DNA of 64,000 nucleotides from Minisyncoccota bacterium. Lineage in GTDB: Bacteria; Patescibacteriota; Minisyncoccia; Phycocordibacterales; UBA9973. This document shows positions 41,733 to 53,469 of this stretch, one piece after another (positions within the stretch are counted from its first letter, which is position 1; each line of letters opens with the position of its first letter). Made by a program: the position numbers and the translations under genes. The notes beneath the pieces were generated by a model. It saw nothing but the letters and a program-made list of their open reading frames with translations, searched no databases and was not told where the DNA came from. The stretch is from assembly GCA_041658325.1 (NCBI GenBank), contig JBBAAI010000001.1, positions 27,427 through 91,426 on the forward strand, in the 5' to 3' direction.

Positions 41733-43664
41733 TTAATTTACCACAACACCTCCATTGCCAGGGAAAGCCGCATCACTATCAAGTCTTGTGTTTAAGCCTA
41801 TTTTATTTACTTTCACATCTACATTAGCAAAATCATCATGCCCAGTCAAAATTGCATCATTTATAATAGTTGGAATTGTGCCTACTTGAGAAAGCGACGG
41901 AGTGAAAGATACTTGAAAAGAAACGGTTCGCGAAGGCCCTGTGATTCCTGCCCCCTTCGGAATTCTATCAACATTCCAAACAACTCCTTTTGTAGAAGAG
42001 TTGTAAGTTAAATTTTCACTAGCAGGTAAAAATGGTCCTACGAAAGTTACCCAAGGAGGAAGAGTGGAGTTGACTTGTACTCCCGAAATACTATTTGCAG
42101 TATTTGAAAGAGTCCAAACAATAGTGTAGGTCGTAGCTTTTTCAGCCTTAGGAGGGATCAGCCCAGTATTAGTAAAAGACCCAGAATAATAAAGCGCTTT
42201 TGCAGAAAATCCAACATCAGAAATAATTCTTATGGTTGCAGAGGAAGAATTATTCAACTCATTAACTGCAAAACCTTCGGTCGCTTGTTTGCCAGAAATA
42301 TTTACTTCTATATTTATAGTAGGATTGGAAAGAATTCCTCCCGAGGCAGAGAAAAGCGAGAGTGGAGAAACGGAAAAAGTAACAGATCCAGAATCACCCG
42401 GATTTACTTCTTTAAGTTGATTTTTAGAATTTTGATTCCAAGTTACTACATCACTAGATGAATCATAAAATCCTTGCGTCGCTCTTATCGTCTGACGATT
42501 GGCGGCATTCCCAGAAATCTTTGCTTGTATTTGTAAATCATCTACCTTGGTATCTAAATTATTAGCATAACGTATTTCAACATTAACTGGTGTCTTCCAA
42601 TCTGTGGCGTATTCTCTTTTGGATATACCATTTACAAAAATATTTGCTTCAACAAAAGGTTTTTTTATTGTAATAATGTTTTTTACTGAATTGAAAACAA
42701 TACCAATTACAGATTTGTCCGTACTGGATTGTAAACCACTCAAGGTATTAAAGGTTTTTTCTTCTCCATCAAAAACATCAATCATTTTACCAGTGATAGA
42801 AATACTGTGTTCCACTCCTGGAGCAAGGTCTCCTAAATTCCAAACATTATTACCAAAAGAAGGTGCTGGTACAGATTTTATAAAAGCAAATCCTACAGGA
42901 TAATCAAGCTTCACAAGTATTTTTTGAGATGGTTCAGTAGAGTTTAATGTTGCTTTCACATTCAAAGTAATTTCTTGATTAGGACTTATAGAAAGCGGAG
43001 CATCTACTGTTAAGTTTATTGGCGTGGAATTAATATTTACTTCGTAAAGTTTTTCTTTTACAAAAATAGCATTAGACCCCGCTACTCGATACTCAATAGA
43101 AATTTTTATAGGACGAGTACTTCCCTGTTCTCCAAAGAGTACTACTTTCAAATTTTCATTATGAACAGCCCCCCCTGAAATCGTGCCAAGTGATAGACGA
43201 AAACGTTCAGTGTCAGAAGACAAATCAGACGAAGAACCCTTTGGGTATTCCACGATAAGATCTACTAGATCTAATGAAGAGCTGTTTTTGTTTGTAATCC
43301 CCACGATTAATGAAAGTTCTTCCCCTCCAGCTGTAAAATTATTACCAAGAATGGAAATATCGATATTATCATTGGAAACAGTATTTCCTCCAGCAAAAAA
43401 AACATAAGCGGCATATCCTAAAGCCAAAACAAAAAAAATCAATGAAAAAACAAAAAAATTCTTAAATTTGGAAGTTTTCATAAAAAAATTTTCAACACTT
43501 TTGGAATCAATTTTTTCTTCAGTTCCCCAAGAATCCGACACATCCTCCCTGCGAGGGTGAGAAAAGATATCTCGATGTTCTATCTTAGTTTGATAATTTT
43601 TACTGAAGAGTTTGCTTTTTAAATCTTCAAGTTTGTTAAGTTTATTTTCGTCTCCTAGCGACAT
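41733..43664 (-). CDS. large hypothetical membrane-anchored extracytoplasmic protein
   Basis: 643 aa, N-terminal TM (FFVFSLIFFVLALGYAAYVFF), beta-rich ectodomain. Confidence 0.45.
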   Translation of the reverse strand: MSLGDENKLNKLEDLKSKLFSKNYQTKIEHRDIFSHPRREDVSDSWGTEEKIDSKSVENFFMKTSKFKNFFVFSLIFFVLALGYAAYVFFAGGNTVSNDNIDISILGNNFTAGGEELSLIVGITNKNSSSLDLVDLIVEYPKGSSSDLSSDTERFRLSLGTISGGAVHNENLKVVLFGEQGSTRPIKISIEYRVAGSNAIFVKEKLYEVNINSTPINLTVDAPLSISPNQEITLNVKATLNSTEPSQKILVKLDYPVGFAFIKSVPAPSFGNNVWNLGDLAPGVEHSISITGKMIDVFDGEEKTFNTLSGLQSSTDKSVIGIVFNSVKNIITIKKPFVEANIFVNGISKREYATDWKTPVNVEIRYANNLDTKVDDLQIQAKISGNAANRQTIRATQGFYDSSSDVVTWNQNSKNQLKEVNPGDSGSVTFSVSPLSLFSASGGILSNPTINIEVNISGKQATEGFAVNELNNSSSATIRIISDVGFSAKALYYSGSFTNTGLIPPKAEKATTYTIVWTLSNTANSISGVQVNSTLPPWVTFVGPFLPASENLTYNSSTKGVVWNVDRIPKGAGITGPSRTVSFQVSFTPSLSQVGTIPTIINDAILTGHDDFANVDVKVNKIGLNTRLDSDAAFPGNGGVVVN

Positions 43665-43721: not shown

Positions 43722-44303
43722 TTACAAATGCGTCTCCTTGAGAGCCTTGTTTATCTGATGTAACACCTGAGATCTTGATTTAGAAATTTCAAATATCAAA
43801 CTCTCTTCAAATGGAGATTTAACAAGGTTTTGTAGCATTTCATTTCCTCCTATATATCCTAAATTGTTTAGAATGCGTAAAACAATAATAGCTTCGATAT
43901 TCTGCAAATCAGCTTTTCCCTCTATTTTTTCTAAAATAGATAAACCATTTATCAAATCATTAAACAGAGCCTCGTTTTTTTCAACGCCAGCAAGTAATCT
44001 TTTTAGTAACCTAGCGATGTTAGAAACAACTTCAAAAGTCTCGGTTTTTTTTAAGAGCTGTTCTAGAGCATTAGTTTTTGAGGCGCTAGTTACTCGCCAA
44101 AAATTTTTACCTTGCACAAGATCAACTTTGATATAAGCAAAATCCTGTAAAACAAAACGTAATTTGGAAGACATTTTGCGCACACCCTGTGCCGAAGCAT
44201 AAATCATTCCTAGGTCGCGAGTAAAAATAGAATAATATTTTCCTGTTTCACCAAAATTTTTACTTCCTAATATTATTCCCTCTGTGTGATAAATGTGATG
44301 CAT
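43722..44303 (-). CDS. recO: DNA repair protein RecO (short form)
   Basis: 193 aa, N-terminal OB-fold start HTEGIILGSKNFGETGKYYSIFTRDLGMIYASAQGVRK typical of RecO. Confidence 0.6.
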   Translation of the reverse strand: MHHIYHTEGIILGSKNFGETGKYYSIFTRDLGMIYASAQGVRKMSSKLRFVLQDFAYIKVDLVQGKNFWRVTSASKTNALEQLLKKTETFEVVSNIARLLKRLLAGVEKNEALFNDLINGLSILEKIEGKADLQNIEAIIVLRILNNLGYIGGNEMLQNLVKSPFEESLIFEISKSRSQVLHQINKALKETHL

Positions 44304-44306
44304 ATT

Positions 44307-47300
44307 TTATTTTTCAATTTTTACTTTAAAAATTAAATCACCTATCTTCACCTCTTTCCCCTCGTTTCCTTTATATTCAATTTTAGACACGAGTACAACT
44401 TTTTTGATTTCCACTTCAAACTTTTCTATCAATTTTTTACCCATATCATTGGTTTCGACAACAAGGGTAACAACATCACTCGGAGTAAGCCCTATCTTCT
44501 TTCTTATCTCTTGTAGGGCTCGCGCCAATTCTCGATAATCTCCTTCTTGTTTTAATTCTCCGGTAATTTCTGTGTCTAGCAATACTTCTGTTTCTATATT
44601 TTTATTTTCTTTGATTTCTTTTATGTTTATTTCATCTTTTATGAGCTCCATATACTCTTCTTCTAGGTTGAAATTCTTTATTTGTAGTTTAGCAAGTGGT
44701 TGACGAACTTTTATCCCAGCTTTTTGTCTTGCCTCGAGGCCAAGAGTCACAATATTTCTAACTGCCTCCATTTTTTCTATAATTTTTGGTTCGCCAAATC
44801 CAAAAATACCAAAGACGGTCTTTAACACAGTCGGCCTGCCTGCGCAGGCAGGCCATTCTGCTAAATGCACACTTTCTTCATCTTTTTCATTTTTTAATTT
44901 TGACCAAATATCCTCTGCCGAAAATGGTGCGAATGGGGCAATCAATTTTGCCAGAGTTTTTAATATAAAATAGAGAGTTTGTTTTGCTTCGTTATCTCCT
45001 TCTTTTATTCTTTCACGCGAACGACGCAAATACCAAGTAGAGAGATCACCAACAAAATCTCGAAATGCCCTCGTTGGCTCAAGTAATTTGTAATTATCAA
45101 GATTCTTTGTTGTAAGTTCTATTAATTCATCCAGTCTCGTCAAAGTCCAAATGTCTAAAATATTTTTTGATTTAGGTTTGTTATTTTTTTCTAAATTTTT
45201 ATCTCTGTAAAGTTCATAAAACGCAAGCACGTTATAAAGCAACCCAAAAACTTGTTGATGCAACAAGGCCACAGTTTTTTCATCAAAATTCTTTGACTCA
45301 CCTGGCTGATTAACTGAATACATCCAGAGACGAAGTGTATCAACACCATATTTATCCATCGCTTCCCATGGATCAACAATATTACCGAGAGATTTAGACA
45401 TTTTTTTACCCTTAGCATCAAGTAAATGTCCTAAACAGATAACGTTTTTAAAAGCCTTCCCTCGCCCCACAAGCATTCCCACGGCGTGCAGAGTGTAAAA
45501 CCATCCGCGTGTTTGATCTATCGCCTCTGAAATGAAGTCAGCAGGATAACCTGGACCATCTACCCAATTTTTATTTTCAAATGGGTAGTGATCTTGCGCG
45601 AAAGGCATCGCACCGGAATCAAACCAAACATCCATCACTTCTTTTGTTCTTACCAAATTACCACTACAACTACAAACAAGCGGCACTTTGTCTATGTACG
45701 GTTTGTGCAAATCTAATTCATAATTTTCATTATGTGGGAGAATTGAAAAATCTATTTCTTTAATTTCGGCATTCTTTATATTATCCTTTTCGCCCCGAAA
45801 TTCTATAGTGTTTTTTTTATCAAGACCCAAAGCCACAGATATAAGCAAAAAGGCAGTCACTTCGTGTGTTACTAATAAAATATTTTTATTAGTATATTTA
45901 GACTCAAGCTCATAAATTAATTTTCCAACTCTGTTTTTAACATCGGTATAGGATTCTCCACCTTCTGGTCTTTTTTCAAAACGTATCAAAGTATGAGGAA
46001 ACTCTTTTAGTAAGTCATCAATTTTTTTACCATTATATTTGCCGACGTTCCACTCTAGCAAAGAATCCTCTTCGATTGTCTGCTCCTTCTTTATTCCGAG
46101 AGACGAAATAATAATTTCTGCAGTTTCTTTCGTTCTCGTTAAGGGAGAATATATGACTAGATCAATTTTTGCATTTTTCAATTCTTGCGCACTTTTTCTT
46201 ACTTGTTCTTTCCCCTTTTCAGTAAGGTGGTAGTTGTCGTTTAGAGAATTAGATAAAATATTTTGAACATTGTTTTCTGATTCTCCATGTCGCATCACAA
46301 AATATTTATTCCCAGATTTTTTTGTCTTTTCTTTTATTTCTTCCAAACTCCCCAGAACATCAATTTTTTTACATTTTTCACATTGCCAAACCGGAAGCGG
46401 GGTTCCCCAATATCGCTCGCGAGAAACTGCCCAGTCTTTTATCTCCCTTAGCCACTCACCGAAACGTCCATCACGAATATGTGCTGGTTCCCAATTTATT
46501 TCTTTGTTTTCCGCAATCATCTTTTCTTTGATTTTTGGATCAGTTACTCTGATATACCAAGAATCCCGCGCATAATAAATGAGCGCAGTATGACAACGCC
46601 AACAATGCGGATATGAGTGTTCATATTTTTCTTTTTTCAATAACAATCCGCGGTGCGCCAAATCCTTAATAACATCAACTGCCACTTCTTCGTCTCTTAC
46701 AAATCTGCCTTCAAAAATATCTGTGCCAGGCAAGAATTTACCATCTAGGCCCACGAGATGCTGTTTCGGTAAACTAATTTGCGTTCCGAGAGCAAAGTCA
46801 TCTTGCCCATACATCACCGCCGTGTGCACAACACCAGTTCCATCTTCAGTCGTCACGAAATCTGCCCCGTAAACTTTGTATGCTTTTTCTAATTTCGGTT
46901 TTTCGCTTTCAGAAATAATATTGGCAAGATACGGATAAAGTGGTTCGTATTCTAAGCCGATTAAATCTTTGCCTTTCATTTCTTCTGTAATTTCATATTC
47001 ACCATCAATTATGGAAAGTCGGGCCTTAGCTAAGATAAAAATCTCGTTGCCAAATTTAATTTTCACATAATCAATATCTTTACCAACTGCCAAAGCAACG
47101 TTCCCCGGCAATGTCCAAGGAGTCGTCGTCCAAGCTAGAATATATGTATTAGCCGAAGCCGTATGCTTGTGCGAATGGTCTGGCTGGGGTTGGGGACCCA
47201 GAGAACCGAGGACCTGAGCAGAAGCATCGGCGAAGGCCTTTATTTTAAATTTCACATAAACAGACAAATCTTTTACATCTTCATACCCTTGGGCTAGTTC

Positions 47301-47888
47301 GTGCGAAGAAAGAGCTGTGCCACAACGCGGACACCAAGGTACGACTTTATAATCTTTATAAAGTAAATTCTGTTCGTTTATTTTTTTTACGATATTCCAA
47401 ACAGATTCAATAAATTTATTGTGATAAGTAACATATGGATTTTCTTGATCCACCCAATATCCGATACGCTTGGTAAATTTATTCCAAATTTCCAAATATT
47501 CCCAAACGCTTTCTTTACATTCCTGATTAAATTTCGCAATTCCATATTCTTCAATCGCCTTTTTGGAATTAAGTCCCAATTTTTTTTCTACTTGTAATTC
47601 CACAGGAAGACCATGCGTATCCCATCCGCCTTTTCGGCGCACGTGATATCCCTGCATCGTTTTATATCTCGGGATTACGTCCTTGAACGCTCGCGCCTCC
47701 AAATGGTGAATCCCCGGCTTGCCGTTTGCCGTCGGTGGACCTTCGTAAAAAATAAATTCCTTCTTCCCTTCAGTTTGTTCTAGAGATTTCTCAAAAATTT
47801 TCTTTTCTTTCCAAAATTCTAAAATTCTTTCCTCGCGCAACGCCGTTTCACTTTTTTTGTTTGTCTTGTTTGTTTCTTCTTCTTTCAT
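44307..47888 (-). CDS. ileS: isoleucyl-tRNA synthetase with in-frame inserted histidine-phosphatase (PGAM-like) domain
   Basis: 1193 aa single ORF; IleRS motifs (PPTANGKPGIHH, WTTTPWTLP, CP1 editing region, KMSKS, DVWFDSG); residues ~527-690 contain RHGE, SPLTRTKETA, EGGES, LVTHE = histidine phosphatase signature. Confidence 0.9.
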   Translation of the reverse strand: MKEEETNKTNKKSETALREERILEFWKEKKIFEKSLEQTEGKKEFIFYEGPPTANGKPGIHHLEARAFKDVIPRYKTMQGYHVRRKGGWDTHGLPVELQVEKKLGLNSKKAIEEYGIAKFNQECKESVWEYLEIWNKFTKRIGYWVDQENPYVTYHNKFIESVWNIVKKINEQNLLYKDYKVVPWCPRCGTALSSHELAQGYEDVKDLSVYVKFKIKAFADASAQVLGSLGPQPQPDHSHKHTASANTYILAWTTTPWTLPGNVALAVGKDIDYVKIKFGNEIFILAKARLSIIDGEYEITEEMKGKDLIGLEYEPLYPYLANIISESEKPKLEKAYKVYGADFVTTEDGTGVVHTAVMYGQDDFALGTQISLPKQHLVGLDGKFLPGTDIFEGRFVRDEEVAVDVIKDLAHRGLLLKKEKYEHSYPHCWRCHTALIYYARDSWYIRVTDPKIKEKMIAENKEINWEPAHIRDGRFGEWLREIKDWAVSRERYWGTPLPVWQCEKCKKIDVLGSLEEIKEKTKKSGNKYFVMRHGESENNVQNILSNSLNDNYHLTEKGKEQVRKSAQELKNAKIDLVIYSPLTRTKETAEIIISSLGIKKEQTIEEDSLLEWNVGKYNGKKIDDLLKEFPHTLIRFEKRPEGGESYTDVKNRVGKLIYELESKYTNKNILLVTHEVTAFLLISVALGLDKKNTIEFRGEKDNIKNAEIKEIDFSILPHNENYELDLHKPYIDKVPLVCSCSGNLVRTKEVMDVWFDSGAMPFAQDHYPFENKNWVDGPGYPADFISEAIDQTRGWFYTLHAVGMLVGRGKAFKNVICLGHLLDAKGKKMSKSLGNIVDPWEAMDKYGVDTLRLWMYSVNQPGESKNFDEKTVALLHQQVFGLLYNVLAFYELYRDKNLEKNNKPKSKNILDIWTLTRLDELIELTTKNLDNYKLLEPTRAFRDFVGDLSTWYLRRSRERIKEGDNEAKQTLYFILKTLAKLIAPFAPFSAEDIWSKLKNEKDEESVHLAEWPACAGRPTVLKTVFGIFGFGEPKIIEKMEAVRNIVTLGLEARQKAGIKVRQPLAKLQIKNFNLEEEYMELIKDEINIKEIKENKNIETEVLLDTEITGELKQEGDYRELARALQEIRKKIGLTPSDVVTLVVETNDMGKKLIEKFEVEIKKVVLVSKIEYKGNEGKEVKIGDLIFKVKIEK
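44833..44854. repeat. perfect 22-nt GC palindrome ggcctgcctgcgcaggcaggcc inside ileS (codes PACAGRP)
   Basis: 18-nt core cctgcctgcgcaggcagg also present at 56167..56184 inside comEC. Confidence 0.8.
47174..47218. repeat. GC-rich 45-nt dispersed repeat copy inside ileS (codes ASAQVLGSLGPQPQPD, an insertion before WTTTPWTLP)
   Basis: reverse complement of 31537..31581, 44/45 identical. Confidence 0.8.
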
Positions 47889-48197: not shown

Positions 48198-48491
48198 TTA
48201 TCTACATCCAAAGTTATCACAAATATTTTCACACACAGGAGAGTTACTTAAGTCATCTTTACTGCCAACAAAACTACATTTGTACCCACAATCAAACCTT
48301 TTATATTGAGTTGTTCCATCTCCGTAATAAGCGTTACCGGCTGATAAGCAAGTTTCTTTTGATTTATAATCTATCCGCATAAGAGTTACACCTTCTCCGT
48401 AAAGATTTAATTGCCAGGGCTTACTAAAATAAGTATAAGCTCCATACATTAACACAACCAATATTAAAACAACTATTATTTTATTTTTCAT
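48198..48491 (-). CDS. small secreted Cys-rich protein
   Basis: 97 aa, N-terminal signal/TM, 8 Cys. Confidence 0.4.
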   Translation of the reverse strand: MKNKIIVVLILVVLMYGAYTYFSKPWQLNLYGEGVTLMRIDYKSKETCLSAGNAYYGDGTTQYKRFDCGYKCSFVGSKDDLSNSPVCENICDNFGCR

Positions 48492-48755: not shown

Positions 48756-50420
48756 CTACATCTTCCTCGGTGCTTCGATACCGAGCAAGTGCAGTCCAGT
48801 TTTCGTTACAAATGAAAATGCGTAGGTTAGGGCTATTTTGTATGAAGAATATTGATCATCTTTGCTAACAATAACAGTATTTCCATAAAAACTATTAAAT
48901 GAGCGGGCGATTTCTATCAAATAATTCGCAATGTGGTGTGGCTCATATAATGAAGCGGAACGAGAGACGATTTCTGGAAATTTATATAACAATTTTTCCA
49001 ATTCAAAAATTTCTTCCGGCACCTTTTCAAAATCCGGCAAAATATTTTCTTTTTGCGCTTTTTCTAATACGGAATTCGCGCGAGTATAAGAATATTGCAA
49101 ATATGGTCCGGAATCCCCTTCAAAAGAAATAGACTTTTCAAAATCGTAGATAATATCTCCGCCGATGGATTGTTTCAGAATGGAATATTTTATCGCCGCC
49201 ACTCCGACTTCGTTAGCAATTTTTTCTTGTTCTTCAGGCGAAAAATTTCGATCGGTCATTTTTTCTAAAACCATATCGTGAACATCGCCCATAAGTGACT
49301 CACCAGTAATCACATTCCCTTTTCTAGAACTCATTTTCCCACCCACAAAGCGCATCATGCCGTGGGTAATGTGTTTCATTCTATTTTCAAAATCTGGATG
49401 AATTATTGAAAGAGCTTTTGCCACGACCCGCATATAATCCATTTGTTCATTCGCAGTGATGGTTATGGATAAATCCATATTGGGTTCTGTTTTAAATTTT
49501 TCCTTAGTTAAACCCAGCTCTTTCGTCTCGTAAGTCGGCAAACCTTGAGAAGTGATGAAAACTCTTGTATGTAATTTTGGGTCAAATTTTTCTGCTTTAA
49601 AGATCACAGCTCCGTCTGATTTTTCAAAAATTTTACCGATATTTGCTTGAACAATTTCTTTCCCTATATCTGTCATTGCACTTTCCAAAAAGTAAAAATC
49701 AAATTTCGTGCCGAGAATTTTATACAAATCCTCAAAAGCTTCCATCGTCACATCAAAACCCCATTTGTATATTTCGTTTATTTTCTCGTCGCTCTTGTCA
49801 TAAAGTTTTTTATTTATTTCATCTATTTCTTTTTTCGCTTTTTCGTCTGTTTCATAAAGCTCCGCGCCTCGAGAATATGCATGTCCGATATTTCCAGCCT
49901 GGAGAGCGATAGAACCAGCCTTGTTTTGGAGTTTCTCATTATCCAATAGTCCATAAATAGCTTTCGCTACATGCAAACCCACGTCACCTTGATAATTCGC
50001 CCTAGCGACCAGTGCGCCAGAGTGTTCTAAAATTCTCGCGATGGATTCACCGATGGCATTCGTCATTAGGTGCCCGATGTGAAAAGGCTTGAAAGGATTA
50101 GGATCGGTATATTCCACCATTATTTTTTTGCCCGAGAGCAATTCATTTTTTCCATAGCCGTTTCCTTCGTTTAAAATTTCCTCAATGCTTTGACTAAAAA
50201 ACTCTCGGGATAAAAAAAAATTAATAAACTTGCCGGCTATCTCTATTTTTTCTATTTCTGCTAATTTATTTTTTTCTAATTTCTCCAAGGCTTCTTTCTC
50301 ATTTTCTAAAGACGAAAAAAAAGCATAGTCACCATTTTTAATATCCTTGGGATGCGCTAATACAAAATCTCCCTCAATCTTTAAAATTTCTTTTATCCAA
50401 TTTTTTATTTTTTGTTCCAT
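48756..50420 (-). CDS. argS: arginyl-tRNA synthetase
   Basis: HIGH motif PFHIGHLMTN, class I ArgRS architecture; start trimmed to MEQKIK to avoid 58-nt overlap with dut. Confidence 0.9.
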   Translation of the reverse strand: MEQKIKNWIKEILKIEGDFVLAHPKDIKNGDYAFFSSLENEKEALEKLEKNKLAEIEKIEIAGKFINFFLSREFFSQSIEEILNEGNGYGKNELLSGKKIMVEYTDPNPFKPFHIGHLMTNAIGESIARILEHSGALVARANYQGDVGLHVAKAIYGLLDNEKLQNKAGSIALQAGNIGHAYSRGAELYETDEKAKKEIDEINKKLYDKSDEKINEIYKWGFDVTMEAFEDLYKILGTKFDFYFLESAMTDIGKEIVQANIGKIFEKSDGAVIFKAEKFDPKLHTRVFITSQGLPTYETKELGLTKEKFKTEPNMDLSITITANEQMDYMRVVAKALSIIHPDFENRMKHITHGMMRFVGGKMSSRKGNVITGESLMGDVHDMVLEKMTDRNFSPEEQEKIANEVGVAAIKYSILKQSIGGDIIYDFEKSISFEGDSGPYLQYSYTRANSVLEKAQKENILPDFEKVPEEIFELEKLLYKFPEIVSRSASLYEPHHIANYLIEIARSFNSFYGNTVIVSKDDQYSSYKIALTYAFSFVTKTGLHLLGIEAPRKM

Positions 50421-50427
50421 ATTTATA

Positions 50428-50853
50428 TTATTTATGCCCCGTACTACCAAATTTACCATCACCCCGAACTGTTCCCGAAACTTCATCCACTTCTAGTATC
50501 TCACAATCTTCAAATTTTTGGATAACCATTTGGGCTATTTTATGTCCCTTCTCTATTATAACTTCTTTGTCCGAAACATTTAATAGATTCATAATGATTT
50601 CTCCTCGATAACCAGCGTCAATAACCCCGCCCATCACCTTAAGTCCAAGATTAAAAGAAATCCTAGATTTATCCCAAATAAGCCCCACACATCCGTCTGG
50701 TATTTCAATCGCTACACCCGTGGGAACATGCATTTGTTTGCCTGGCGGAAAAACGACATCTTCAATCGTGTAAAAATCTATCCCTGCATCACCCGGATGC
50801 CCATGTGTGGGCAACTTCGCATCTTTATGTAATTTTTTAACTTTTATTTTCAT
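50428..50853 (-). CDS. dut: dUTP diphosphatase
   Basis: 141 aa, dUTPase motifs (GDAGIDF, GLIWDKSR, RGDGKFGSTG). Confidence 0.85.
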   Translation of the reverse strand: MKIKVKKLHKDAKLPTHGHPGDAGIDFYTIEDVVFPPGKQMHVPTGVAIEIPDGCVGLIWDKSRISFNLGLKVMGGVIDAGYRGEIIMNLLNVSDKEVIIEKGHKIAQMVIQKFEDCEILEVDEVSGTVRGDGKFGSTGHK

Positions 50854-51542
50854 TTCAAAACTTTTTTAATTTTTTTATAAACTTCTTCGTGAATATCCTC
50901 GCGAGTTCTCATTTGTCCTTTTTCTTCACAATTTATTCGAAGCCATCCTTTTTGTGTCCCTGCGAGCCAAAGTGCGCTCTTGATAGAATTCTTCATAAAC
51001 TTTCTATCTTTCTCATGAGCATCTTTCTTTCCTTTCAAATACGCTCTGCTCTTTTTTTTATTTCTCTCTTTTATCAATTTCAAAACCATTTCAATCGGCA
51101 AAGATAAATATATAGTGAGATCCGGCACAGGAATTTTGAAAACTTTATATTCCATTTCGGCGAGCCACTCCATAAAGGCTTCGCGTTTTTTCACATTCGC
51201 GATTTTTCCGCCCTGATGTATTTGGTTGGAAGAAATGTATCTGTCTAAAATCACGAGATAGCCTTCGCGGAGCCATTTCTCAATTTGCTCTTTGGATTCC
51301 CATCGATCTGCTGCGTAAACTATTGAGGCGATTTTCGGATGAATGTGTGTCCAATTATAATATTGCTCGGAAAGACAGTGCCCAATAAATTTACCAAAAA
51401 AATTATCCTGATAGCGCGGGAAATCCATAATTTTAACCTTTTTTCCATCTCGACGAAGATGCTTGATAAGCAAATCTGCTTGCGTATTTTTCCCGCTTCC
51501 ATCCACTCCGTCTATTACGATAAGTTTTCCGTGTTTCGCCAT
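50850..51542 (-). CDS. tmk: thymidylate kinase
   Basis: 230 aa, P-loop IVIDGVDGSGKNTQ. Confidence 0.9.
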   Translation of the reverse strand: MAKHGKLIVIDGVDGSGKNTQADLLIKHLRRDGKKVKIMDFPRYQDNFFGKFIGHCLSEQYYNWTHIHPKIASIVYAADRWESKEQIEKWLREGYLVILDRYISSNQIHQGGKIANVKKREAFMEWLAEMEYKVFKIPVPDLTIYLSLPIEMVLKLIKERNKKKSRAYLKGKKDAHEKDRKFMKNSIKSALWLAGTQKGWLRINCEEKGQMRTREDIHEEVYKKIKKVLK

Positions 51543-51543
51543 A

Positions 51544-52218
51544 TTATTTTTTTATTATTATTTCTTCTTCTGGTTTTTCGAGTTTCAAATTATCAATTAT
51601 TTTTTCAGCCACAAAATTAGGATCCATAAATTCATCGTAGTTTTGGGGTTTGTTTTCGTCAAATAAATTTGTTTGCATAGCTCCCGGATAAACTCCAAAA
51701 ACTTTAATTTTCTCGCCGTCCACTTCTTTCATGAGAGACTTAGTAAATCCAGACGCGGCGAATTTGCTTGCACAATAGGCTGTCTCGTTTACTTTTCCGT
51801 CTAAACCACTGGTAGAAATAATATTTACAATAGAACCAAAACCCTGCTTGCGCATATGCGCCAAAGAAATTTTGGAACCATAAACTGTGCCAAATAAATT
51901 AACCTCCATTAAATCGTGGGCTCTTTTCCAATCCGTTTCTTCGATCGGTTTATGTGGCAACCAGATGCCCGCATTATTTACCCAGATATCAATTCTACCA
52001 AAATCACTAACGACTTTTTCGGCTAATGCTTGAATTTCATTTTCCTTCGTAACGTCTACTTTGACGCCCACAATTTCGCTTTCCAAATTTTTCAACTCCT
52101 CTTCATTTCTAGAACAAACTACAACCCTAGAACCATCTTTCAAAAAACAAAGAGCTAGGGCTTTGCCTAAACCCTTACTTCCTCCCGTTATAACTATAAC
52201 TTTATCTTTTAAATCCAT
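51544..52218 (-). CDS. SDR family oxidoreductase
   Basis: 224 aa, TGGSKGLGKALA Rossmann motif, YxxxK (YCASK). Confidence 0.8.
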   Translation of the reverse strand: MDLKDKVIVITGGSKGLGKALALCFLKDGSRVVVCSRNEEELKNLESEIVGVKVDVTKENEIQALAEKVVSDFGRIDIWVNNAGIWLPHKPIEETDWKRAHDLMEVNLFGTVYGSKISLAHMRKQGFGSIVNIISTSGLDGKVNETAYCASKFAASGFTKSLMKEVDGEKIKVFGVYPGAMQTNLFDENKPQNYDEFMDPNFVAEKIIDNLKLEKPEEEIIIKK

Positions 52219-52224
52219 AAATTT

Positions 52225-53469
52225 TTATACAAACTTTTTAGGTATTGGAAACTTTTTGGCTAATTTTTTAATTTCTTTATGCACAGATTCTTTTATTTTT
52301 TTATCATCTTTGTTTTTTAGGACTTCAATCATTAATTCCGCGATTTTTTTGCACTCTTTTTCTTTAAACCCACGCGTAGTGATGGCTGGAGTACCAAATC
52401 TTATGCCTGACGGATCAAGAGGTTTTCTCGTATCTCCTGCGATAGCATTCATATTGAGGGTAATCCCTACTTCATCTAAGACTGTCTGCGCTTCTTTGCC
52501 AGTCACTCCAAGAGAACCGAAAACATCAGCTAAAATAAGATGATTGTCTGTGCCTCCGCCGATCATCCTAATTTTATTTTTATGAAAAACTTCTTCCATC
52601 GCTTTTGCGTTTTTCAAAATTTGTTTGGCATATTTTTTAAAAGCCGGTTTCATTGCTTCTCCGAAAGCCACGGCTTTCGCGGCAACAGTATGCATATGTG
52701 GACCACCTTGAATTCCAGGAAAAATAGATTTATCAATTTTTTTGGCAATTTCTTCATTCTCCCGAGTGAGAATTATCCCTCCGCGTGGACCGCGAAGTGT
52801 TTTATGCGTAGTGGAAGTAATAATATCAAAACCATCATCAAATGGATTACGTAAAACTCCCGCAGCAATGAGCCCGGCGATATGCGCCATGTCTGCCATG
52901 GTGACAGCGCCGACTTCGCGCGCAATTTCTACAAATTTTTTATAATCTAGCGTGCGTGAGTACGCAGAAAATCCAGCTAGAATTATTTTAGGCTTTTTTT
53001 CTAGGGCAACTTTGCGTAAATCTTCGTAATCAATCTCTCCTGTTTCCGGATCTTTCATTTTATAGGTAACAAAATTATAAATTTTTGCCGGTAAGGTCAT
53101 CGGATGCCCGTGAGTCAAATGTCCTCCGTGTGATAAATCCATACCAAGCACAGTGTCTCTAGGATTTAATAATGCTGCATATACAGCCAAGTTCGCCGGA
53201 GCGCCAGAGTGTGGTTGCACATTGGCAAACTTGCATTTAAATAATTTACAAACACGTTCAATCGCCAAACGCTCCACAGCATCAGTAAAATCCTGTCCGC
53301 CATAATACCGTCTGCCTGGATATCCTTCAGAATATTTGTTGGTAAAAACTGAGCCGTTGGCCTTTAGCACATCTTCCGAAACATAGTTCTCGGAGGGTAT
53401 CAATTCCAGCCCTTCTTTTTGTCTTTTCTCTTCGCCTTTTATCAGTTTTTCAACTAGTTTATCTCGCAT
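52225..53469 (-). CDS. glyA: serine hydroxymethyltransferase
   Basis: 414 aa, SHGGHLTHG and PLP-Lys region TTHKTLRGPRGG. Confidence 0.9.
   Translation of the reverse strand: MRDKLVEKLIKGEEKRQKEGLELIPSENYVSEDVLKANGSVFTNKYSEGYPGRRYYGGQDFTDAVERLAIERVCKLFKCKFANVQPHSGAPANLAVYAALLNPRDTVLGMDLSHGGHLTHGHPMTLPAKIYNFVTYKMKDPETGEIDYEDLRKVALEKKPKIILAGFSAYSRTLDYKKFVEIAREVGAVTMADMAHIAGLIAAGVLRNPFDDGFDIITSTTHKTLRGPRGGIILTRENEEIAKKIDKSIFPGIQGGPHMHTVAAKAVAFGEAMKPAFKKYAKQILKNAKAMEEVFHKNKIRMIGGGTDNHLILADVFGSLGVTGKEAQTVLDEVGITLNMNAIAGDTRKPLDPSGIRFGTPAITTRGFKEKECKKIAELMIEVLKNKDDKKIKESVHKEIKKLAKKFPIPKKFV

Follow-up and report, generated by a model that had tools for sequence, protein, structure and literature searches.

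A complete histidine phosphatase nested within the isoleucyl-tRNA synthetase of a Minisyncoccota bacterium and its relatives

Aminoacyl-tRNA synthetases rank with the best-studied enzymes, and extra domains on them have repeatedly revealed new biology, in editing, signalling and resistance. For isoleucyl-tRNA synthetase (IleRS), a precedent for an additional catalytic domain exists in the NCBIfam family NF040702 (ileS_w_GNAT), where the extra domain is an N-acetyltransferase. Here we describe an IleRS with a complete histidine phosphatase nested in its catalytic body. It is encoded by ileS (44307..47888, minus strand) in a 64,000-nucleotide stretch of a Minisyncoccota genome from the candidate phyla radiation (CPR) (GCA_041658325.1, contig JBBAAI010000001.1, positions 27,427 to 91,426). 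This whole stretch is called the window, and labels of the P and L series denote database proteins and loci, respectively, throughout. The window protein matches NF040702 via its IleRS part only (334 bits against a cut-off of 1999). The actinobacterial bifunctional RNase H/acid phosphatase (PRK07238), which we take to be the Rv2228c/RnhC type, likewise joins a CobC-like histidine phosphatase to a nucleic-acid enzyme. It differs in being an end-to-end fusion rather than a nested insertion, with another partner enzyme and in another lineage, and to our knowledge the role of its phosphatase domain is also unexplained. The nested-phosphatase IleRS is a synthetase with an accessory domain, a known general kind.

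The closest solved structure of the host enzyme is IleRS2 chain 8c8w (E=6e-236), presumably from Priestia megaterium. Both proteins have the GxHH signature, the CP1 editing domain, two Cys knuckles, KMSKS, and the anticodon-binding and type-2 C-terminal domains. Where 8c8w has only a few unaligned residues, the window protein has an enzyme of ~195 amino acids and a conserved new linker, PHNENYEL. The ileS gene is a single uninterrupted open reading frame (ORF) of 1193 amino acids, as the initial annotation of this DNA had it, and every motif which that annotation quoted is found in the translation where it was placed. The naming of the host as IleRS also holds, since NCBIfam TIGR00392 scores 868.5 bits against a cut-off of 621.4, and NCBIfam puts the host nearest to MupA/MupB-like type-2 enzymes. 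Pfam assigns tRNA-synt_1 (E=2e-117) in two stretches split around His_Phos_1, exactly as had been predicted, together with Anticodon_1 and DUF5915. The last of these (PF19302, aa 1071-1193) is the type-2 C-terminal region (DUF5915/ARD3) in place of the type-1 zinc-binding domain. All features of ileS lie on the minus strand. The class-I HIGH signature takes the variant form GIHH (47703..47714, aa 59-62) and aligns to GVHH of 8c8w; some relatives (L084) have the canonical H-x-G-H. The GxHH variant is linked to mupirocin hyper-resistance. The Thr-rich CP1 editing motif WTTTPWTLP (aa 253-261) aligns to the editing-domain structures 1wk8, 1wny and 1ue0, DVWFDSG is located at aa 753-759 of the translation, and KMSKS (45390..45404, aa 829-833) aligns to its counterpart in 8c8w. 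With all these signatures present, the IleRS part should still charge tRNA-Ile.

The nested unit occupies 45738..46322 (aa 523-717), inside the interval 45707..46364 (aa 509-727) by which the initial annotation had correctly bracketed it. It is as long as an entire stand-alone homologue, P0334 (195 amino acids), whose residues 4-195 align to aa 523-713 (nucleotides 46322..45750); the insert is therefore a whole protein and not a fragment. The Pfam domain His_Phos_1 (PF00300) covers 45750..46301 (aa 530-713; E=5.6e-36) with 124.5 bits against a gathering cut-off of 21.7, and takes in positions 2-185 of the 194 in the profile. The site lies after the strand W-A-V-S-R-E-R-Y-W-G-T-P-L-P of the Rossmann fold and before D-V-W-F-D-S-G. 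It separates C503-x2-C506 from C739-x-C741, which together form the second Cys knuckle of IleRS. The first half, CEKC (46371..46382, aa 503-506), aligns to CEGC of 8c8w, and the second, CSCSG (45660..45674, aa 739-743), is placed by alignment to 8c8w and by comparison of orthologues, which upholds the earlier view that the domain is nested in the zinc-knuckle region. The equivalent linker of ordinary IleRS is short, as was also claimed: the 8c8w alignment stops at query residue 519 and restarts at ~710-718 with few 8c8w residues skipped, and in the insert-less IleRS of L084 and L085 the ~200-residue query segment is a gap. In an alignment of 69 full-length orthologues, the basis of all conservation figures given here, all four knuckle Cys are present in 42, and nearly all of the other 27 lose them together yet keep the insert.

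Both junctions are strongly conserved. On the N-terminal side, KKSGNKY (46302..46322) has K524 in 93%, S525 in 94%, and N527 and Y529 in 100% of orthologues, and NKY[FY] is also the N-terminus of stand-alone homologues. On the C-terminal side, PHNENYELDLHKPYID (45690..45737) includes aa 718-726 (P-H-N-E-N-Y-E-L-D), conserved at 97-100%. In this stretch DLHKPYID is native IleRS and PHNENYEL is a linker specific to the nested forms, absent from the stand-alone phosphatases and insert-less IleRS compared. The AlphaFold2 model of aa 489-747 has a predicted local distance difference test (pLDDT) of 94.3 and a predicted template modelling score (pTM) of 0.90, and it contains the discrete inserted domain that the initial annotation expected; inside the full-length model the insert retains pLDDT 87-96. 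Foldseek matches of the insert model in the PDB are PspA, GpgP, PhoE, CobC and a riboflavin-pathway histidine phosphatase, with probability 1.00 and target-normalised template modelling scores of 0.71-0.78 among the best-ranked chains (4ij6, 4qih, 1h2e). The identity of the domain as a histidine phosphatase and its nesting in IleRS are practically beyond doubt.

The insert belongs to branch 1 of the histidine phosphatase superfamily and has the full catalytic set R-H-N-R-E-H, in keeping with the complete signature reported before. RHGESENN (46269..46292, aa 533-540), with R533, the nucleophile H534 and N540, aligns to RHAESEWN of PspA 4ij5. The phosphate-binding R585 lies in SPLTRTKETAEI (46113..46148, aa 581-592), where S581 and R585 are conserved at 100%. 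LLEWNVGKYNG (46029..46061) holds the general acid E612 and leads into a variable cap region, and LLVTHEV (45858..45878, aa 671-677), with the second catalytic His, H675, aligns to VVVSHTV of PspA. PEGGESYTD (aa 641-649), which the initial annotation had counted in the signature, is indeed a conserved family motif; the catalytic acid is E612 of LLEWNVG and not the Glu of PEGGES, E645. R533, H534, R585 and H675 are conserved in 100% of the orthologues, and G535, N540, E612, E645 and R653 in 99%; the conserved catalytic residues align with those of PspA. This near-invariance, and the Foldseek matches, are consistent with the catalytic phosphatase-fold domain proposed at the outset, and the nested phosphatase is very probably competent in catalysis.

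The remainder of the insert changes fast. Mean pairwise identity is 0.40 for the insert and 0.66-0.68 for the two halves of the IleRS catalytic core, and in IleRS pairs with 85% backbone identity the inserts are ~40% identical. The cap region, aa 613-643, is especially variable, with most positions conserved at 20-60%. Judged from the alignment, this is a pattern of presumed selection on the chemistry and not on the surface, the junctions excepted. The histories of insert and backbone also disagree (loci L036, L053, L040 and L023; L067, L075 and L012). L036 and L053 have inserts that are 74% identical, IleRS backbones that are 53% identical and syntenic neighbours, and L067 and L012 have backbones 85% and inserts 38% identical. 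The disagreement suggests intragenic recombination or mosaic replacement.

The closest solved sequences to the insert are PspA (4ij5), PhoE and CobC. PspA, PhoE (1h2e), CobC (6nru, 6e4b) and GpgP Rv2419c (4pz9) share with it the fold, a size of ~200 amino acids, the R-H-N-R-E-H set and G-x-W/F-x-G-K after the catalytic Glu. They differ in being free-standing, whereas the insert is nested in a synthetase, and their identity to it is 19-28%. At this position the majority residues of the orthologues read G-x-[FW]-E-G-K, matching GDWEGK of PhoE. The insert belongs with the ~200-residue phosphatases, as a phosphomonoesterase of PhoE/PspA/CobC type, rather than with the mutases. Its second-best NCBIfam match, PRK07238, scores 89-93 bits against a cut-off of 326. 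The model for CobC alpha-ribazole phosphatase (TIGR03162) gives 82-87 bits against 162.9, and that for PspA phosphoserine phosphatase (NF045917) gives 70-74.5 bits against 350; PspA is the closest solved structure yet only 26-28% identical. Because the insert reaches no curated family cut-off, a substrate is not transferable by homology.

The nested architecture is common rather than unique. PF00300 lies inside an IleRS of ~1150-1220 amino acids in all 120 of the 120 best full-length relatives (65-79% identity). Both junctions and the insert, in the form of a relative of aa 489-747, are encoded in at least 187 species genomes of GTDB, the majority of them Paceibacteria. The count comes from a pattern scan of one genome per GTDB species that needs exact peptide words, and is a lower bound. 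Record titles among the 187 name Paceibacterota, Nomurabacteria, Zambryskibacteria, Berkelbacteria and Parcubacteria. The survey of CPR ileS genes proposed in the initial annotation thus finds the insertion shared by related genes. An identical protein, P0121 (MFA5777943.1), is already in NCBI, JGI and ENA under the title 'class I tRNA ligase family protein [Candidatus Paceibacterota bacterium]'. The initial annotation, which did not recognise the architecture as a described one, was right in that no description turned up in full-text searches, which paired IleRS with histidine phosphatase and His_Phos_1 with tRNA-synt_1 and also covered CPR synthetase insertions and phosphatase-synthetase fusions. 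A 2026 preprint surveying ~96,000 IleRS domain architectures mentions neither phosphatase nor Patescibacteria (10.64898/2026.02.03.703510). The architecture is apparently undescribed in the literature searched; what is new is its recognition and the comparative picture, the sequences and precomputed Pfam matches being already public. The commonness of the architecture, its prior deposition and its split-gene and valyl-tRNA synthetase (ValRS) counterparts lay beyond the sight of that annotation. Four nested-phosphatase IleRS of 1317-1365 amino acids (P0166, P0190, P0203, P0210) have a divergent C-terminal HD domain (aa ~1160-1270) that replaces the DUF5915 end, and the long ORFs of L009, L019, L051 and L079 probably have it too. 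We considered this domain as a functional clue and set it aside as uninformative, since it gives weak matches to generic HD, HDIG and HD_3 only and none to a solved structure.

Free-standing homologues, for which the initial annotation had suggested a search, do exist, and several of the closest are neighbours of synthetase genes. At the P0334 locus the order is argS, phosphatase, an insert-less ileS (935 amino acids), recO and then a DUF11/CLIPPER gene. The P0031 locus has the phosphatase, an insert-less ileS (968 amino acids) and recO; the P0037 locus has the phosphatase, a small ORF and an insert-less ileS (1046 amino acids); and at the P0319 locus the phosphatase gene follows argS with a 4-nt overlap. 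In a single case, P0035 (L086), argS and the phosphatase precede a gene of the HIT family (DcpS_C/HIT), whose enzymes act on nucleotide adducts. The more distant stand-alone homologues P0041 and P0063 lie away from synthetase genes. The order argS-(phosphatase)-ileS-recO recurs in L091/L092 and across most of L094-L173.

Scanning metagenomes with five stand-alone phosphatase sequences gave 80 loci, with a stand-alone phosphatase gene in 64, the phosphatase nested in IleRS in 15, and ArgRS and phosphatase in one ORF in the remaining one (L123). Insert-less ileS starts at or overlaps the end of the phosphatase gene in 51 of the 56 stand-alone loci with enough downstream sequence, and in six stand-alone loci with the junction read, the phosphatase ATG comes 3 to 10 nt after the argS stop codon. 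In 10 nested loci argS can be seen upstream, and all of these lack a separate phosphatase ORF. Taken together with the 51 of 56 split loci, this means that the nested and split states are mutually exclusive at one conserved locus. Between argS and ileS the window shows no remains of a stand-alone phosphatase gene, and its 64 kb yielded no second copy. The place that the phosphatase gene has in split-form genomes is taken there by a Cys-rich ORF of 97 residues with an N-terminal hydrophobic segment (48198..48491, minus strand), which matches no Pfam family and does not resemble the phosphatase. In a neighbour-joining tree, star-like and without support values, most linked stand-alone genes are basal to the nested clade and a few fall within it. 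Synteny and this poorly resolved tree make it likely that the nested domain originated from the operon partner. In the lineage of the window, the small phosphatase gene between argS and ileS would have been relocated by ~1.5 kb into ileS, after which phosphatase and synthetase would be made 1:1 as one polypeptide. The GC content of the insert is 0.30-0.34, against 0.38-0.42 in the flanks. As a sign of foreign origin we reject this, the insert being only slightly richer in AT, a difference in line with weaker constraint and without diagnostic value.

The insert, used as query in a sensitive search, returned 14,553 relatives (E<1e-3). At E<1e-30 there are 62 matches, the majority of them lying within longer proteins; synthetase fragments are among the few short ones. 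P0361 (locus L081, a 47.8-kb contig) is a ValRS with two phosphatase copies. Among its 120 best ValRS relatives, 72 have the domain, in a single copy in 58, two copies in 12, three in one protein and four in another, and sources name some of the phosphatase-bearing ValRS as Peregrinibacteria or Gracilibacteria. The interval between the W-C-I-S-R-Q-type motif and KMSKS, which holds the IleRS site, contains 74 of 89 ValRS copies, and the first copy typically begins ~30 residues past the WCISRQ-type motif. Where a synthetase has several copies, these differ in site: some stand in tandem in the knuckle loop, and others follow the editing domain, fall between the residues equivalent to aa 773 and 782, or immediately precede the anticodon-binding domain. 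In eight multi-copy proteins checked, with 18 copies, the catalytic set is full in 14, R-H and R585 are present in all, and H675 is present in all where the position aligns. An insert-less valS of Peregrinibacteria is without a phosphatase neighbour, and simple neighbour capture therefore does not explain the ValRS case. Other phosphatase-bearing ValRS are P0394 (L176), P0246, which is a ValRS fragment with four copies, and P0384-P0497. In L081, valS has a PemK toxin gene immediately upstream. A third synthetase is represented by L123:2881-5067, where the argS stop codon is missing (...SPQQM-KRIELNNKYY...) and ArgRS and phosphatase form one 729-residue ORF; this is a single example and may be a sequencing error.

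The split, nested and fused forms in three synthetases (ArgRS, IleRS and ValRS) suggest that the phosphatase may well be functionally coupled to the synthetase, which we rate at slightly better than even. We favour, with about the same confidence for the reading as a whole, an active phosphomonoesterase that is tied to class-Ia synthetases and came from an operon gene nested in ileS. Such a phosphatase would remove a phosphate from something bound by the synthetase, and tethering would bring a true kinetic benefit chiefly where the substrate is a macromolecule or is bound to the enzyme. Our preferred guess is the removal of a 2'/3'-phosphate or pyrophosphate on the tRNA 3' end that would block aminoacylation. 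The guess is made because IleRS and ValRS are the synthetases with two active sites between which the tRNA 3' end already travels. The E. coli CCA-adding enzyme, a tRNA 3'-end enzyme with an HD-domain phosphatase/2',3'-cyclic phosphodiesterase thought to heal phosphate-blocked ends, is the functional analogy behind it, a lead and not evidence. It differs in its HD fold, its host enzyme and its terminal fusion. The tRNA 3' end as substrate is speculation and, on balance, unlikely; the next option, also speculation, would be hydrolysis of an adenine-nucleotide or pyrophosphate product. More doubtful still is a fuller version, in which tRNA 3' ends would meet, in the nested phosphatase, a third active site on the editing-type class-Ia synthetases (IleRS, ValRS), making a 'self-healing synthetase'. 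The flexible CCA end of the synthetase-bound tRNA, which already moves between synthetic and editing site, would reach the phosphatase too and would there lose a 2'/3'-phosphate or pyrophosphate that nucleases or CCA-pyrophosphorylating toxins had left, so that the tRNA could be charged again.

Several points weigh against functional coupling and a tRNA substrate. These can be summarised as (i) recO is equally conserved in the argS-ileS array yet functionally unrelated, which makes synteny alone weak evidence of shared function; (ii) the close characterised relatives all act on small molecules, and we know of no RNA-end phosphatase in the histidine phosphatase superfamily; (iii) a trans-acting enzyme would suffice for general tRNA repair; (iv) the cap, which usually shapes specificity, is poorly conserved here; (v) the full-length AlphaFold2 model, which would have to show the relative orientation of phosphatase and synthetase, is weak (mean pLDDT 68.8, pTM 0.45), with a poor Rossmann fold (pLDDT <50 at aa 30-95 and 751-848); (vi) basic charge does not serve as a sign of RNA binding. 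On this last point, the median isoelectric point is 9.9 for the linked stand-alone phosphatases and 5.6 for the nested domains. A basic isoelectric point (8.6-9.3) is likewise seen in ArgRS, IleRS and RecO from these loci, several linked stand-alone phosphatases are acidic, and the charge is put down to a proteome-wide bias.

The main rival is that an ordinary small-molecule phosphatase, acting for example on phosphoserine, a sugar phosphate or a nucleotide, hitch-hiked into a permissive loop of the synthetase and is kept for the cell's own need. The small-molecule substrates of its closest characterised relatives are what this would predict, and with the donor gene directly upstream of ileS, a local rearrangement would be a simple route. 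The case of recO shows that the array is conserved regardless of function. Fast evolution outside the active site is expected of a domain without conserved contacts to its host, and the joint loss of the four Cys in nearly all orthologues short of the full set marks the knuckle as dispensable. The account fits less well with ValRS from a different CPR class, where the domain occupies the equivalent interval from WCISRQ to KMSKS and no neighbouring donor gene was found. Extra copies, moreover, are added within synthetases rather than as free genes, an ArgRS fusion exists (L123), and the junction linkers are ~100% conserved. We regard a mere passenger as a possibility to be taken seriously, if distinctly the less probable outcome.

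The nested domain might instead be a regulatory or self-protecting module that senses a phosphorylated metabolite or removes phosphate from the synthetase, for instance by undoing the action of a HipA-like toxin kinase, and so tunes IleRS instead of acting on tRNA or products. The superfamily includes the protein phosphatases SixA, Sts-1 and PGAM5, covalent tethering would be a large advantage for a macromolecular or cis substrate, and the intact phosphate-binding pocket is compatible with such a role. The domain is closest, however, to small-molecule phosphatases and not to SixA, Sts or PGAM5, and we know of no kinase that targets IleRS or ValRS. The PADLOC anti-phage defence models matched neither the window protein nor ValRS P0361, and a pure sensor would have no need of a general acid, yet E612 is 99% conserved. 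Regulation of this kind seems improbable.

A further proposal, appealing from the standpoint of annotation, is that the insert is the 'missing' phosphoglycerate mutase (PGM) of some Parcubacteria, in which a PGM gap was reported by Jaffe et al. 2020 (PMC7304191). Its best NCBIfam match is indeed the archaeal cofactor-dependent PGM (dPGM) model NF038349, and sources name some stand-alone homologues 'probable phosphoglycerate mutase'. The match, at 100-104 bits, falls far below the cut-off of 225, and every other dPGM model fails as well: TIGR01258 gives 27.9 bits against 81.7, and the PRK dPGM models stay far below their cut-offs. The dPGM-specific motifs ERHYG and HGNSLR read EWNVG and HEVTAF in the insert, at positions that vary among orthologues, and the majority pattern of the orthologues after the catalytic Glu matches PhoE. 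We have rejected dPGM as the identity of the insert, and a hidden mutase appears very improbable.

An artefact, whether chimera, frameshifted gene pair or intein, can be dismissed: a few database entries are truncated or frameshifted, but the frame of ileS is unbroken, the same junctions recur in hundreds of independent assemblies (NCBI, JGI, ENA, Logan) and are ~100% conserved, one ORF spans both of them in 78 of 80 loci fetched from independent assemblies (L002 and L073 are broken upstream of the insert, in CP1), which rules out a chimera, and an intein is excluded, as the initial annotation had already argued, by the lack of Cys/Ser at the N-junction KKSGNKY, by the Glu that follows the conserved H719-N720 and by a histidine-phosphatase rather than a HINT fold. 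Short 'IleRS + His_Phos_1' proteins on long contigs (P0006, P0008, P0023, P0027, P0042, P0046) have out-of-frame-looking tails. These pieces are frameshifts or assembly errors within the gene in some metagenome-assembled genomes, and NCBI names them 'histidine phosphatase family protein, partial'.

The gene order in the window is argS-ileS-recO-DUF11, all on the minus strand. The upstream neighbour argS (48756..50486) has the Pfam domains tRNA-synt_1d, DALR_1 and Arg_tRNA_synt_N; the downstream neighbour recO (43722..44303), assigned by RecO_N and RecO_C and by synteny, is followed by the DUF11 gene (41733..43664), and downstream of the latter lies a class-II synthetase (443 amino acids, HGTP_anticodon). 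Directly upstream of argS, 50428..53469 (minus strand) holds genes for a dUTPase, a thymidylate kinase, a short-chain dehydrogenase and SHMT. Within ileS, two hypervariable loops, aa 218-246 (47151..47237) and aa 1013-1032 (44793..44852), have pLDDT <50. The first, AFADASAQVLGSLGPQPQPDHSHKHTASA, is locally rich in GC; just 27 of the 69 orthologues have it in extended form, with very different lengths and sequences.

In hundreds of Patescibacteria species, IleRS contains, in its catalytic body, a complete second enzyme with an intact active site, and a counterpart exists in the ValRS of another CPR class. This raises the question of which phosphate a synthetase needs to have removed. The locus also offers a natural experiment in how a neighbouring gene turns into a nested domain. 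Metabolic reconstructions of CPR bacteria will miss the hidden phosphatase, because annotation of the whole protein says only 'IleRS' or 'class I tRNA ligase'. Should the phosphatase have come along as a passenger only, this would still be an unusually clean case of domain nesting in an essential enzyme. If repair of tRNA ends or protection against toxins were its role, it would constitute a new quality-control layer in translation.

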